A stretch of DNA of 63,372 bases, the filler included, from Reclinomonas americana ATCC 50394 (lineage: Eukaryota), in the NCBI GenBank assembly GCA_048213135.1. It is 15 parts of 15 records of this genome, joined end to end, with 100 filler letters (N's around TTAATTAATTAA, not from the genome) between each part and the next. Parts side by side here need not be neighbours in the genome. Positions count along the whole stretch, not along the records: positions 34,054 to 55,662 come from AFZH01021422.1; 14 more parts are not named here. The stretch is one strand, 5' to 3'. Within the stretch, counting starts at the first letter, position 1; every line of letters begins with the position of its first letter. Below the pieces are notes generated by a model. That model ran no database searches, was not told the origin of the DNA, and saw only the letters and a list, made by a program, of their open reading frames with translations. Of this stretch, positions 37,259-53,800 are shown one piece after another. Both the position numbers and the translations under genes were made by a program.

Positions 37259-40200
37259 ATGGGTGCTGCGCAGAGTGGAGCTGTGGCGGGCAATGATGGT
37301 GGAGGGAAGAGGTTTGTGATCTGTTGTTTGTTGTCTGATCGATCGCTGTGCAAACTCGCTCGCTTATTTCGCAGGAAGAGAGCATGTGGTATGGCGTTGA
37401 ATTGCGACGTGAAGGCACTGCGCGAGTTGGTGTCACGTAAGGGCGCACACACTCTGCTCAAGAAAGAGGAGATGCATGAGGGCGCTTCGGCATTTTACGC
37501 GGCCGCTCAGGAAGGCCATCTCTCTGTGTTGGAGTATTTGTGGGAGGAGAGTGGCGTCGGTCCGGAGCTCGCACAACTGGCCAACGACTATGGCTTGACG
37601 CCACTGATGTGCGCTGCCATCAAAGGGCGTCTGCAAGTGGTGGAGTGGTTGCTTGCCGATGAGCGACGATGTCCCCCGGAAATGGTGCGGGCCGCCACCA
37701 ATGATCGTTCCGACAATCCACAGTCCACTGCATTGCATTTTGCTGCCGACTGGGGCCACGAAGCCATTGTGCGACTCCTTGCCACACGCTTTCCCGACCT
37801 CATTCCCATGGTCAACAAGGAGGGCAAGACGGCGGCTCAATGGGCACGCGACTGTGGCAAGCAAGAAGTGGCCGAGTTGCTCGACCGCCTCGCTGCGCAG
37901 CAGCAAGCACCACCACGTCAAAAACAACAACAGCAGCCGCGGTCTCCACCTCCAGGTATCTCCCTTCCGTCTTTTTCTGCGACCTTTGTTGTTGTCTCAG
38001 TCCCTTATCTGCGATTCGTGACTGTGTGTTTCCTCATCCGCCCGCATCATCAAATTTGCTCCTGTACCAGCGCCAGCATCTCCACAGCAGCAGGTGAGGA
38101 GCTGTGCTCATTCTCCCACAGCATTCCGTTCGTGTGCTGTCTCATGCACGTGTTTCCATTCACTCTCTCGCTCTCTTTCAAATCTCCCGATTTCCATGCA
38201 GGCCGTGGACGCCGCCGCGGTGGTACGCCAGCTCGCCGACAAGGATGCGCTCATCGCCCAACTGCAGCGTGAGTATGACGCATATCGACGGGAGCGAGAA
38301 CAGCAGCAGTGGGAACTCGAGCGACAAGTTGAGCAACAACGACGGGAACACGAAGACATTGTCGGTCAACTACAGCAATCAAACACGGAATTACAGCAAG
38401 CTCACGCCACTTCCGAGCAACGAATCACTCAGCTACGACGCGAACTGGACCAGCAATCTCAATCACTCGATGATGAGCGACTGCGGTCTTCCGATCAGAC
38501 GCGTGAAATCGAGCGCTTGCGCCTAGAGAACGACGGCTTGCGCCGCGAGCTGTCCTCTCTCCAAGGTACGACTCATTCAGGTGCACGTCTTCTCTGCATA
38601 CTGTCACTCTGAACCTCTCTTTCTCCTTTCCCATCTGCAGCCGCAGATCCGAATCGCCTTCGCGAATACCCCTGGCCCGACATTCTCCGCGCCACCAACT
38701 CCTTCTCCGGCGACATGAAGGCTGGCGAAGGTGGCCAAGGTGACGTGTTTCTGTGCTGGCTAAATGAGGAAGATGTGGCTGTGAAGAGATTGGATCATGC
38801 CGCACCGTGGGCCATGGAGTCGTACGATGCGGAGGTGTGAGATGGCAGTAGGAGATGGGATTGGGGTTTACTTGTCTCACTCCCCCTTACCCCAGTTGAA
38901 CACGATTGGACGACTACATCATCGACGACTTGTCCCGTTGCTGGGATACTCCACGCTGGTGGAGGGCGATGCTGTGCGAGGTTGGTGCCTGGTGTATCGA
39001 GCAATGCGGTGAGTTGGTGGGGCAGATTGTGTCTTTTTCTGTCTCCTCGTTCCTTCTCTTCTCTTCTATAGCCTATCTGTCTCCCCGCTGTTCACTCTTC
39101 ACCTCCCTTCATTGTTTCTCTTTCTTTCTCTCACTCCTTGAAATAATAATCTGAATCTTCACTGATCCATACACAACACACCTTCCAGAGATCGTCATTC
39201 TTCTTCAACAAAGCACATTGTCTCCTCCTTTTGCTTCTTTCCTTTTCTCTTTCTCCTCTCTCCGCATGCCCTTCTTCCTCACTCACTCGCTTCGCACACA
39301 GTGGACAGGATCTGGAGGTGCGACTGATGAAGCGAGCGGCCGGCATGCAGCCACTGACGGTGGTGGAGCGTGTGCAAATCGGACTCGGCATTGTTGAGGG
39401 CATGTGTTTTTTGCATCAGGTGAGTGAGGCAACAGTCACCTCCGCTGCTTTGATTGGCGAGAACATTCATTGTTTGTGTCTTTGGTTGATGAGTACATCT
39501 TGAGATTCTTCTCTGCTCAATTGGTTGTGTCTTTGATTATTGTCAACAGAGTGGGCACTCGTCTTGTGCTCTTGTTTCCTGTCGTTGGATTGTGTTTCTT
39601 GTGTCTTCTCTCGTCGTGCTTCTCGCTCTTGACAGTTCACTTGCGGCTTCCTTCATTTGTGATCTGCTGCTCACGCTCGTGTCGGTAATCTTCCTTGTCT
39701 TCTCCTCACCCACGACCTTCCTTCGGATGACGAGTTCTTTGGTGTCATGCATTCTCGGATACCATCGCCCTCTCTCTCCAGATGTTCTTCCCTTCGACCA
39801 GCACCCTCACTCTCTCTCCACTCTCAGAACGGCGTCGTGCACCGCGATCTCAAACCATCCAACATTCTACTCGACAATCGATGCGAGCCACGCCTCGGTG
39901 ACTTTGGAATTGCGCGCATTTTCGACGAGGGGGGAGGTGAGTGTGTGTCTCAGCAGATGGGAGATTGCACGGGAGGATGCTTTTCCTCTTCATCGTTGTT
40001 GGCGTGCGTTGCACTCGCTCTGTTGTTTGCTTCTCACTTTTCTCTCGGTGTATCTATGCTGCACGAAGTTTCGTAGCACATGGAGCTGGTTCTCTTCGTC
40101 TTCGATTGGTGGAGTGCAATGCACTCGTTCTGTCGGTTCACGAGCTGAGGTGCATGTTTGTGTCTCGATGCATGTCTGCTTCTCACTACTTTCTCGGTCT

Positions 40201-50843: not shown

Positions 50844-53800
50844 ATGAGTGCGGCGCGCAGGGGAGCTGTGGGGGGCAGTGGTGGCGCTCGGAGGTGTGTG
50901 CGTGTGTGAATGTGTGGGATGTTGTCCGATCGATCTCTGAAATGCACACTCACTCTCTCTGCTGGTTGTGCTTCGCAGGCTGAGAGCATGGCAGATGGCG
51001 TTGGATGGCGATGTGAAGGCATTGCGCGAGTTGGTGGCGCGTGAGGGTGCACGCATTCTTCTGAAGAGAGAGGAGATGCACGAGGGCGGCTCGGCATTTT
51101 ATGCTGCCGCTGTGAAAGGCCATCTCTCCTTGTTGGCGTATTTGTGGGAGGAGAGTGGTGTCGGTCCGGAACTTGCACTGGTTGTCACCGATTATGGCGA
51201 GACACCGCTGATGATCGCTGCATACAATGGGCATCTGCAAGTGGTGGAGTGGTTGCTTGCCGATGAGCGACGATGCCCGCCGGAGATGGTGCGGGCGGTC
51301 ACCAATGATCGTTCCAAAAGTCCGCAGTCTACTGCTCTGCATTTCGCAGCCTGGAATGGACACGAAGCCATTGTGCGACTCCTTGCCACTCGCTATCCCG
51401 ACCTCATTCCCATGGTCGACTGTGAGGGCAGGACGGCGGCTCAGTTGGCACGCCAACAGGGCCATCACCAAGTGGCCGAGTTGCTCGACCGCCTCACTGC
51501 ACAATCAGCACCACCACGTCAACAGCAACAACAGCAGCCGCGATCTCCTCCACCTCCAGGTCTTTCTCTGACGTGTGCTGTTGTCTCTCCCTTGCACATG
51601 CTGACCTGCACTTCGTGACTTTGTGTTCCTACTCCGTCCCCATCATCAAAGTTGCTCGTGTGCCAGCAGCGGCTTCGCCACAGCGGCAGGTAAGAATCTG
51701 CGCAATCCTTCCTATATCAGTCCATTCGCGCACCGTCTGTGGTGGTTTCTTGTCGCTCTCTTTCTCTCTACTCTTTCCGACCTCCTTGTTACGTGCAGGC
51801 CGTGAACGACGCCGCCGCGGTGGCACGCCAGCTCGCCGACAAGGACGCCATCATTTCTCATCTTCAGCGTGAATTCGATGCATACCGCCGTGAGCGAGAG
51901 CAGCAGCTGCGGGAACATGAGCGGCAGCACGAGGATTTGCAACAGGCTCTCGGCACTGCGGAACAACGTGTTACGCAGCTGCAGCGTGAACTGGAACAGC
52001 AGGCGCAACTGTTCGCCAGCGAGCGGGTCGATCTCACCCACGAAGTCGGTCGCCTGCGCCGCGAGCTGGCCAATTTCCAAGGTTTGACTGAGAGATCCGC
52101 CTCTTCTGTGCGTGCAGTCGCTCTGAACCTCTCTTTCTCCTTTCCCCATCTGCAGCCGCTGATCCCAATCGCCTGCGCGAATACCCCTGGCCTGACATTC
52201 TACGCGCCACCGAATCCTTCTCCGACGACCTGAAGGCCGGTGAGGGCGGCCACGGTGAAGTGTATCTGTGCTGGCTGAACGAGGAAGAGGTGGCTGTCAA
52301 GCGATTGGATGGTGCCGCGCCATCAGCAATGGAGTCGTACGATGTCGAGGTCTATTGTAGCAGAAGGAGATGAGATTAAGCTGTTGCTCACTTCTCCTCA
52401 TGCCAGTTGAACACGATTGGACGACTGCATCATCGACGACTTGTCCCGCTGTTGGGCTACTCCACGCTGGTGGAGGGTGGTGGTGTGCGAGGGCGATGTC
52501 TGATGTATCGAGCAATGCGGTGAGTTGTAGGGGGGAAGTGTGACGAGGCGGTTGGTTTGTTGATTCTCTTCTCTTCACTCCCGTTTACTTGTATCACATC
52601 TGTCTCTCCCCTGTTTGCTCTCCACCTCCCTTCATTGTTTCTCGTTCTCTCTCTCACACATTGAAATAATAATCTGAATCTTCACTCCTCCACACACAAC
52701 AATGAGCACCTTCCAGAGGTCGTCATTCTTCTTCAACCAAACGAATTGTCTCCTCCTTTGCTTCTCTCCTTTTCTCTCTGCATTCCCTTCTTCTTCTCAC
52801 TTCCTTGCTTTCGCACGCAGTGGACAGGATCTGGAAGTACGACTCATGAAGCGGAAGGACGGGATGCAGCCACTGACGGTGGTGGAGCGTGTGCAAATCG
52901 GACTCGGAATTGTCGAGGGCATGTGTTTCTTGCATCAGGTGAGTGAGGCGACAGTTTCCCTGTTGGCGAGCGCAATCATTGTCTGTGTCATTTGTTGGTG
53001 GGAGCATCTAGAGACTCTTCTTGTTGATACAGGCTGTGACTTTGGTTATTGTCAGCCGAGACTGGCCGAGCACTCGTCTTCCTTGAGTTGTCTGTCGTTG
53101 GATTGTGTTTCTTGTCTTTTCTCTAGTCATGCTTCTCACTCTCGACAGTTCACTTGTGGATGCCCTCATTTGTTATGTGGTGCTCATTGTTCGTGTTCTT
53201 GATCTTCTTCCACTTCACCCACAATCTGCCATTTGTCGATACTTTCTCGGCCCGTCGTTCCTTTCTCGTCATCATGAATTCTCGGAGACCATCGCTCTCT
53301 CCTTCCAAATGTTTCCTTCCACCATCACCCTCACTCTCTCTCCTCTCAGAACGGCGTCGTGCATCGCGATCTCAAACCATCCAACATTCTGCTCGACAAT
53401 CGGTGTGAGCCACGTCTCGGCGACTTTGGCATTGCGCGCATTTTTGATGAGGGAGAGGTGAGTGTGCGTCAGCAGATGGACAGTGGCACAGGAAGATGCA
53501 TGTCCACTTCTTTGTTGTTGGTGTGCGTTTCACTCGTTCTATCGATCTTCTTGCACATTTGCTTGTTGGAGACCCAGAGCTCGTCTTCTCACTTCTCACT
53601 CTGTCGAGTGGATTCTTTCATGGCTGTCATCGAAACCTAGCAGGTGCTTGCAGCGCGACCGATGGAGCGTTCATGTTTGTTGTATGTGCACTCTTTCTCC
53701 ATTCCTCAGCGTGATCACCTTGCTCATCTGTGTCCACTCTCATTTCCTTCGCAACTCTGGTGCATGAGAATACTCTCTCGTTCTCCGTGTCTCCTTGATC

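Follow-up and report, generated by a model that had tools for sequence, protein, structure and literature searches.

Probable positive selection at predicted groove positions in a tandem array of ankyrin-repeat kinase genes of Reclinomonas americana

The window analysed here is a stretch of 63,372 nucleotides (filler included) of Reclinomonas americana ATCC 50394 (GenBank assembly GCA_048213135.1). It joins 15 parts of 15 records of this genome end to end, with 100 filler letters between each part and the next, and positions 34,054 to 55,662 come from the record AFZH01021422.1. Self-comparison of the window showed four tandem paralogues on the + strand (c1 to c4, 37259-54471), with a unit of 3.6-4.5 kb and 10 exons each. 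Each paralogue encodes an ankyrin-repeat (ANK) domain, a coiled coil and a protein kinase. Positive selection was found in the ANK exon only, where non-synonymous changes are in excess at the positions equivalent to the binding groove of ankyrin-repeat proteins. We believe that this is probably a tandem array of soluble signalling kinases whose ankyrin grooves have diverged by positive selection, each groove likely binding a different partner.

An earlier note on this DNA, made from the sequence alone, had claimed that the ankyrin binding-surface residues vary between the paralogues while the kinase is almost invariant. In the ANK domain, 130-143 of 167 residues are identical between copies (78-86%). 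In the kinase, 287-289 of 301 residues are identical among c2-c4 (95-96%), and 262-263 of 301 (87%) between c1 and the others. The description "almost invariant" is correct for c2-c4 and for the catalytic exon; for the whole kinase of c1 it is overstated. The short strings that the note had quoted are present in the spliced translations. In the order c1/c2/c3/c4, these are YAAAQEG / FYAAHEG / FYAAHEG / YAAAVKG in repeat A, ATNDRSDN / VNNDRDNN / FTNDSHPN / VTNDRSKS in the hairpin of repeat C (with AADWG in c1 and AAWNG in the others), and MALNC / MAWNG / MASLG / MALDG and NKEGKT / NKEGES / NKKGST / DCEGRT in the caps. The strings given for repeat B were also found in all four copies, and those given for the outer helices and the catalytic exon are identical in all four. 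The four copies reported by the note were likewise recovered. The array extends past 51500, where the range given in the note ends, and c4 reaches 54471.

The variable residues follow a position pattern. The repeats were placed in the canonical 33-residue register by means of their invariant glycines. In this register, all five repeats vary at positions 13 and 14, four of five at positions 10 and 16, and three of four at positions 1 and 5. Positions 4, 8, 11, 20, 23, 24 and 26 are invariant throughout. Several sites carry three or four different residues across the four copies. When sites were classed by helix, with this register and the DSSP string, the contrast was modest: 15 of 37 residues are variable in the inner helices, 31 of 84 in loops and hairpins, and 10 of 52 in the outer helices.

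Codon tests were performed on the four sequences with our own Goldman-Yang F3x4 likelihood program for four taxa. By the Nei-Gojobori method (NG86), the ratio of non-synonymous to synonymous rates (dN/dS, omega) was 0.34-0.53 in the ANK exon, 0.13-0.24 in the linker and coiled coil, and 0.07-0.13 in the kinase. The maximum-likelihood omega under model M0 was 0.53, 0.28 and 0.11, respectively. For the ANK exon, twice the log-likelihood difference (2dlnL) between M2a and M1a was 24.5, 27.1 and 24.6 on the three possible topologies, with omega2 of 4.4-6.0 at 11-16% of sites. The same comparison gave 0.00 for the kinase and 0.30 for the coiled coil, with no sign of positive selection outside the ANK exon. 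The M7/M8 site models, which the earlier note had proposed for the ANK and kinase exons, gave a 2dlnL of 24.7 for ANK and 1.25 for the kinase on the four copies, and M8 against M8a gave 24.6 for ANK. The ANK signal persisted when four possibly indel-shifted columns were removed (2dlnL 21.2-32.8) and when any one copy was dropped (2dlnL 17.5-29.3; omega2 is not estimable with three taxa). These leave-one-out fits ruled out c1 alone as the source of the signal.

To define the groove, 26 ANK codons were fixed in advance from the conserved register as equivalents of positions 2, 3, 5, 13, 14 and 33, which we take to be the set randomised in designed ankyrin-repeat proteins (DARPins). The substitutions are unevenly spread and concentrated at these positions: 18 of the 26 are variable, compared with 36 of 144 elsewhere (Fisher p = 3.9e-5). 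In a fixed-partition codon model, the omega of the groove was 2.19-2.38, significantly above 1 on all three topologies (2dlnL 11.5-14.2, p = 7e-4 to 1.7e-4). The earlier note had suggested diversifying selection at the groove and had named two outcomes that would speak against it, namely a dN/dS that is not elevated at groove positions and an even spread of substitutions over the structure. Both were examined and the opposite was found in each, which supports diversifying selection at the groove as far as four sequences allow. Sixteen sites had a posterior above 0.9 under M8. Eleven of them lie in the groove set (p = 4.2e-7), and two of the other five are position 10 of repeats 1 and 2. In the ANK-N5C library, the randomised positions are 2, 3, 5, 10, 13 and 33, which form one continuous binding surface (PMC4308713). 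The Reclinomonas protein P0058, which is derived from an expressed sequence tag (EST), was not used to define the set. At 11 of 20 groove positions its residue is one that none of the four copies has, compared with 14 of 114 other positions (p = 6.6e-5).

The copies are not related by one tree along their length. In intron 2 (c1 37956-38070 and equivalents), c2 and c3 are 98.9% identical, and in intron 1 (c1 37312-37374 and equivalents) c3 and c4 are 91.6% identical. Exon 7 (c1 39302-39419 and equivalents) groups c1 with c3 at 94.1%, compared with 86.4% between c2 and c3. Such conflicting groupings point to gene conversion or unequal crossing-over among the copies. Patchwise import of variable codons from divergent donors was also considered. 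It was rejected, as synonymous divergence is not raised beside variable codons: the synonymous difference at invariant ANK codons is flat with distance from the variable columns (0.19, 0.22, 0.20 and 0.23).

In the ANK exon, three internal repeats lie between an N-cap and a C-cap, and a Q-rich tail follows. The c1 exon matched Pfam Ank_2 (E = 7.5e-22) and Ank (1.4e-17), with Ank_3, Ank_4 and Ank_5 also above their cut-offs. The AlphaFold2 model of the c2 exon (predicted local distance difference test score, pLDDT, 89.1; predicted template-modelling score 0.84) contains five inner/outer helix pairs. Membership of the ANK domain is thus borne out by the profile match and by the modelled helix-turn-helix stack with hairpins. 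The top ranks of a Foldseek search of the PDB with this model were DARPins and other designed ankyrin-repeat proteins, mostly of ~154-168 residues, with template-modelling scores of 0.77-0.85 on the target. Among library proteins of similar length, P0058 was the single match to the ANK exon, with 72% identity; the 57 matches among longer proteins were all generic ANK proteins with at most 40% identity.

Exons 5-10 translate to a kinase with a G-loop, VAVK, HRD, DFG and YTDP (an APE-like segment). By these motifs the kinase looks complete and active. Pfam Pkinase matched exon 8 (E = 6.9e-11). Six other c2 exons scanned singly gave no kinase match, as expected for pieces of 32-90 residues. For the two kinase exons searched against PDB sequences (exons 5 and 9), the best matches were IRAK1 and plant RLK/RLCK chains, namely PBL2, SYMRK, LYK3, CERK1 and BRI1 (E = 1.6e-5 to 1e-3). 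The four best full-length blastp matches of c2 were flowering-plant proteins, or clusters whose named members are such. The nearest full-length proteins in a library of 1.84 billion were of plants, and alignments of c2 with a Juncus hypothetical protein, Tarenaya PUB51 (P0174) and a Colocasia kinase-U-box protein (P0063) had 31-35% identity over 270-400 residues, coiled coil included. Judged by its nearest matches, the kinase is predicted to be of the IRAK/Pelle/receptor-like kinase (RLK) type, in the tyrosine kinase-like (TKL) group. A full HMMER scan with kinase exon 9 found 405 proteins at E <= 1e-3, and 23 of the best 150 were scanned with Pfam; none of these 23 nearest library kinases had ANK repeats.

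The Q-rich linker and a 23-nt micro-exon connect the ANK domain to the coiled coil. The coiled-coil exon is 364 (c1), 388 (c2), 280 (c3) and 283 (c4) nt long, and in c2 it has 129 codons. Modelled as two copies, exon 4 of c2 gave a coiled coil whose chains run parallel and in register, with contacts that recur in a heptad-like way. The dimer score was 0.47, compared with 0.00 for the best of three controls; runs agreed in at least 95% of contacts, and the partner pLDDT was 86. Of 30 proteins solved as homodimers, 21 passed the tool's mark, compared with 0 of 23 solved as monomers. On eukaryotes, the figures were 17 of 29 and 0 of 30, with only 1 of 7 passing among those without an older solved relative. 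Because coiled coils are a well-solved kind of structure, the pass may come from likeness to known structures. Dimerisation of the coiled coil is a prediction of this model. As a separate observation, the c2 exon contains an internal duplication of the EYDAYR...QQQ segment, and the c1 exon has extra segments of its own.

We propose the following mechanism. Each protein has a five-repeat ankyrin domain that corresponds to an N3C DARPin in size and fold. A Q-rich linker leads from it to a coiled coil, predicted to pair in parallel as a dimer, and a kinase of the predicted IRAK/Pelle/RLK type follows. After duplication, the ankyrin framework and the kinase would have been held by purifying selection, and residues of the concave face (hairpin positions 33/1/2/5, inner-helix position 10 and turn positions 13/14/16) would have been replaced repeatedly under positive selection. 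The groove presumably binds ligands, a different protein or peptide in each paralogue, and the selected property would be ligand specificity. Binding to the dimer would then control or localise a common kinase output.

The non-synonymous excess might instead come from relaxed constraint and artefact. The exposed groove would then drift at omega near 1, and a small sample, mosaicism, multi-nucleotide or indel events and a depressed synonymous rate would produce the rest. We consider this distinctly unlikely. The following points weigh against our reading or in favour of this alternative. Only four sequences entered the codon tests, so the site posteriors, which are naive and not Bayes empirical Bayes, are weak, and omega2 ran to the bound in some fits (323; 400-550 with three taxa). 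The likelihood code was our own and not PAML or HyPhy, and was checked by null simulation and the negative kinase result only. Because the history of the array is mosaic, one tree per region is an approximation. Among the 52 variable ANK columns are 28 whose codons differ at two or three positions. Codon models can overestimate omega where several nucleotides change together or small indels come in pairs, and two indel-like pairs are visible (residues 41/42 and 125/126). At invariant codons, the synonymous difference is 0.205 in ANK and 0.324 in the kinase, and the deficit in ANK is strongest for c1. This points to a more recent homogenisation of the ANK exon or to constraint at its silent sites, and omega would be overstated if selection on synonymous sites depresses ANK silent divergence. 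The register was assigned after the variable columns had been seen, though it is anchored on invariant residues. Moreover, 8 of the 26 groove positions do not vary, among them 2 and 3 in both repeat 1 and repeat 2 (DY, HE). On the other side, omega = 1 is rejected at the groove on all three topologies, and the signal outlasts the removal of suspect columns. Simulations under the M1a null reached a maximum 2dlnL of 7.68 in 25 single-tree replicates, and mosaic nulls (three segments with three topologies, analysed on one tree) reached 7.72 in 25, compared with ~24.6 observed. Among c2-c4, the groove non-synonymous p-distance (0.24-0.36) is 1.7-2.0 times the intron p-distance (0.13-0.19). In pairs with c1 the ratio is only 0.9-1.4, so the intron comparison answers the objection of a depressed synonymous rate for the c2-c4 pairs only. 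A further point against our reading is that c1 may be a pseudogene. Its exon 8 has 109 nt, compared with 108 in c2-c4, and its G run ahead of the donor has one base more than that of c3. Because exon 8 is one nucleotide longer, the c1 frame breaks after it, unless a GT donor nine bases downstream (39945) is used, which adds three codons, or the G run is an assembly error. The omega of the c1 kinase against the other copies is still ~0.13, and any inactivation would therefore be recent.

Selection may also be real and have a narrower meaning: once duplicated, the copies would have divided endogenous partners or substrates among themselves in a single episode, a neofunctionalisation of housekeeping signalling scaffolds with no open-ended repertoire for foreign recognition. 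We regard this as a serious possibility, on balance a doubtful one. There are only four copies at the locus, the fixed positions 2 and 3 in two repeats suggest that part of the ligand is shared, and most known ANK-kinase fusions (ILK, TNNI3K, RIPK4) bind cellular partners. Yet two EST-derived relatives with 67-72% identity represent further expressed members, the one that covers the ANK domain (P0058) differs again at the same positions, and three or four different residues are found at several sites among only four copies. At the other end, the array could be one part of a germline-encoded set of receptor kinases that act inside the cells of a jakobid-like protist. A DARPin-like paratope, positively selected and shuffled between numerous tandem copies by gene conversion, would sense proteins from bacterial prey, from parasites or from viruses, and a dimeric kinase of the IRAK/Pelle type would pass on the signal. 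This extension is speculative and, in our judgement, unlikely to be correct. If true, it would be an independent invention of variable-sensor innate immunity, without LRR or NOD modules, in one of the deepest eukaryote branches. A non-ligand role of the variable face, such as docking on its own kinase for autoinhibition or blocking cross-pairing between paralogues, is highly improbable. ANK domains can act intramolecularly, which is a general precedent and no direct support. A partner surface in the same protein should co-vary, yet the kinase has no site class above 1, and pairing is most simply assigned to the coiled coil.

Grooves diverged for different ligands, as we prefer to read the array, have parallels in known systems. 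The closest precedent is the hypervariable ANK repeats of fungal NOD-like receptors (NLRs). Their ANK repeats (and also TPR and WD domains) show positive selection on the concave face, with recombination or concerted evolution among copies, and the selected face and the signs of recombination are as in this array (Dyrka et al. 2014, PMC4986451). In the fungal NLRs, the variation lies between near-identical repeats of long arrays that are polymorphic in repeat number, and a STAND module with NACHT or NB-ARC serves as effector (PMC4986451). In the R. americana array, by contrast, the domain keeps five repeats and differs from one tandem paralogue to the next, a kinase provides the output, and no NOD domain was found in the exons scanned. 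Pfam scans of the ANK exon and of seven further c2 exons gave no match to NACHT or NB-ARC, and the gene model leaves no room for them. DARPins and ANK-N5C, which are engineered, have the same format of N-cap, three repeats and C-cap, and the natural variable positions (10, 13, 14, 5 and 33/1) match the randomised ones. The window proteins differ from them in that position 16 is variable as well, positions 2 and 3 do not change in two of the repeats, and the hairpin of repeat 3 is longer.

Plant U-box kinases of the RLCK type resemble the window proteins in coiled coil and kinase at 31-35% identity, and HRD and DFG are present in the window proteins. The plant proteins have a C-terminal U-box (2 of 23 scanned) and sometimes Usp (1 of 23), whereas the window proteins stop right after the kinase. 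No U-box was matched by Pfam in any c2 exon scanned, and the open reading frame stops 33 residues past the exon 9/10 junction. The likeness to plant PUB-type kinases is limited to the kinase part in function. In the animal TKL-group proteins ILK, TNNI3K and RIPK4/ANKK1, ankyrin repeats serve as the partner-binding module of a kinase or pseudokinase. These belong to other kinase subfamilies and have other domain orders than the window proteins, and we know of no report of diversifying selection on their groove. The combination of ANK repeats, a dimeric stalk and an IRAK/RLK-type kinase was not found in literature searches on jakobid or protist ANK kinases, which covered titles and abstract openings.

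A variable-repeat sensor joined to a conserved signalling module is a common design of innate receptors, as in plant NLRs, RLKs, fungal NLRs and lamprey VLRs. To our knowledge, almost nothing is known of such sensor systems in free-living excavate protists. The locus offers a compact testable case, with a predicted paratope under positive selection, a dimerising stalk (modelled) and an IRAK/RLK-type kinase. Should the variants of the groove prove to have different targets, an IRAK/Pelle kinase would have been recruited to variable recognition outside plants and animals, and the array would provide natural DARPin-like binders whose targets could be found by pull-down. If the partners are cellular, it would still be a clean example of neofunctionalisation through a binding surface.

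The gene models are given in Table 1. The window has a G+C content of ~55%, and the introns are short and of GT-AG type. For c1, boundaries were taken by coordinates from the four-copy alignment, and all acceptors are AG and all donors GT. For c2-c4, all GT/AG combinations near the mapped boundaries were searched for open frames, and these three copies are open from start to stop with GT-AG introns. The c2 model is the one with the lowest penalty (nearest to the mapped boundaries of c1) among 900 open GT-AG boundary combinations found. From exon 2 on, the exon lengths are kept: 581 (578 in c3), 23, variable, 194, 113, 118, 108, 272 and 100 nt, apart from the c1 exon 8 described above. The short first exon is also conserved in all four copies. 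The 23-nt micro-exon 3 keeps the frame between the ANK exon, which ends in phase 1, and the coiled-coil exon, which starts in phase 0. It is a predicted exon that would be needed for the reading frame in all four copies.

The gene model has outside support from two sources, the plant kinases and an EST protein. The alignment of spliced c2 with the plant U-box kinases spans junctions 4/5 to 9/10, and its only junction gap is an insertion of 3-5 residues in the subject at 7/8. The EST-derived R. americana protein P0066 (98 aa) matches the C-terminal ends of c1 to c4 with 67-70% identity, and it crosses the exon 9/10 junction without a break. A sequencing run of DNA yielded one contig 100% identical over 42298-42668, unspliced, and two short pieces.

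Table 1. Coordinates of the paralogues and their parts, counted along the window
Feature	Position	Strand	Details	Basis
Paralogue c1	37259..41772	+	10 exons: 37259-37311, 37375-37955, 38071-38093, 38202-38565, 38641-38834, 38896-39008, 39302-39419, 39828-39936, 41328-41599, 41673-41772	four-copy alignment
Paralogue c2, 645 aa	42448..46145	+	10 exons: 42448-42488, 42552-43132, 43222-43244, 43356-43743, 43815-44008, 44066-44178, 44459-44576, 45006-45113, 45705-45976, 46046-46145	boundary search
Paralogue c3, 611 aa	46636..50293	+	10 exons: 46636-46685, 46769-47346, 47436-47458, 47570-47849, 47919-48112, 48182-48294, 48595-48712, 49142-49249, 49836-50107, 50194-50293	boundary search
Paralogue c4, 613 aa	50844..54471	+	10 exons: 50844-50893, 50979-51559, 51667-51689, 51799-52081, 52156-52349, 52407-52519, 52821-52938, 53350-53457, 54028-54299, 54372-54471	boundary search
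ANK exon (exon 2) with Q-rich tail	c1 37375-37955, c2 42552-43132, c3 46769-47346, c4 50979-51559	+		Pfam (c1), AlphaFold2 (c2)
Micro-exon 3 (predicted), 23 nt	c1 38071-38093, c2 43222-43244, c3 47436-47458, c4 51667-51689	+		AG acceptor and strong GT donor in 4/4
Coiled-coil exon 4	c1 38202-38565, c2 43356-43743, c3 47570-47849, c4 51799-52081	+		homodimer model
Kinase exons 5-10	c1 38641-41772, c2 43815-46145, c3 47919-50293, c4 52156-54471	+		Pfam, motifs, PDB matches
G run at the end of c1 exon 8	39930..39945	+	possible in-frame GT donor at 39945	one base longer than in c3

No further copies were found in the rest of the window, outside 37250-54470, by DNA or protein comparison, and Rfam gave no match over 36000-56000. 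The N-terminus of c1 reads MGAAQS, which resembles an N-myristoylation signal; c2-c4 lack the glycine and begin with MSAAQ or MSAAR. Intron 8 of c1 is ~1.39 kb long, compared with ~590 nt in the other copies. At 40076-40537 it contains a direct repeat of ~320-330 nt with an offset of 128 bases (40076-40392 and 40204-40537, 69% identical), which is consistent with tandem units of ~128 nt.

In the remainder of the window, pieces of a dynein heavy chain (Pfam AAA_9, MT and Dynein_heavy) lie 5' of the array at 708-1781 (+) and 2921-3751 (+), and an open reading frame with WD40 repeats lies 3' of it at 60140-61015 (-). The region 18000-32000 has a strongly strand-asymmetric composition, with a G+C skew of up to 0.44, and contains long low-complexity open frames, S/L/P-rich or E/R-rich, made of simple repeats. 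Fourteen pairs of 44-N runs, 12 bases apart, are found between 1784 and 61358. All of them are outside the array, and they look masked rather than like assembly gaps.

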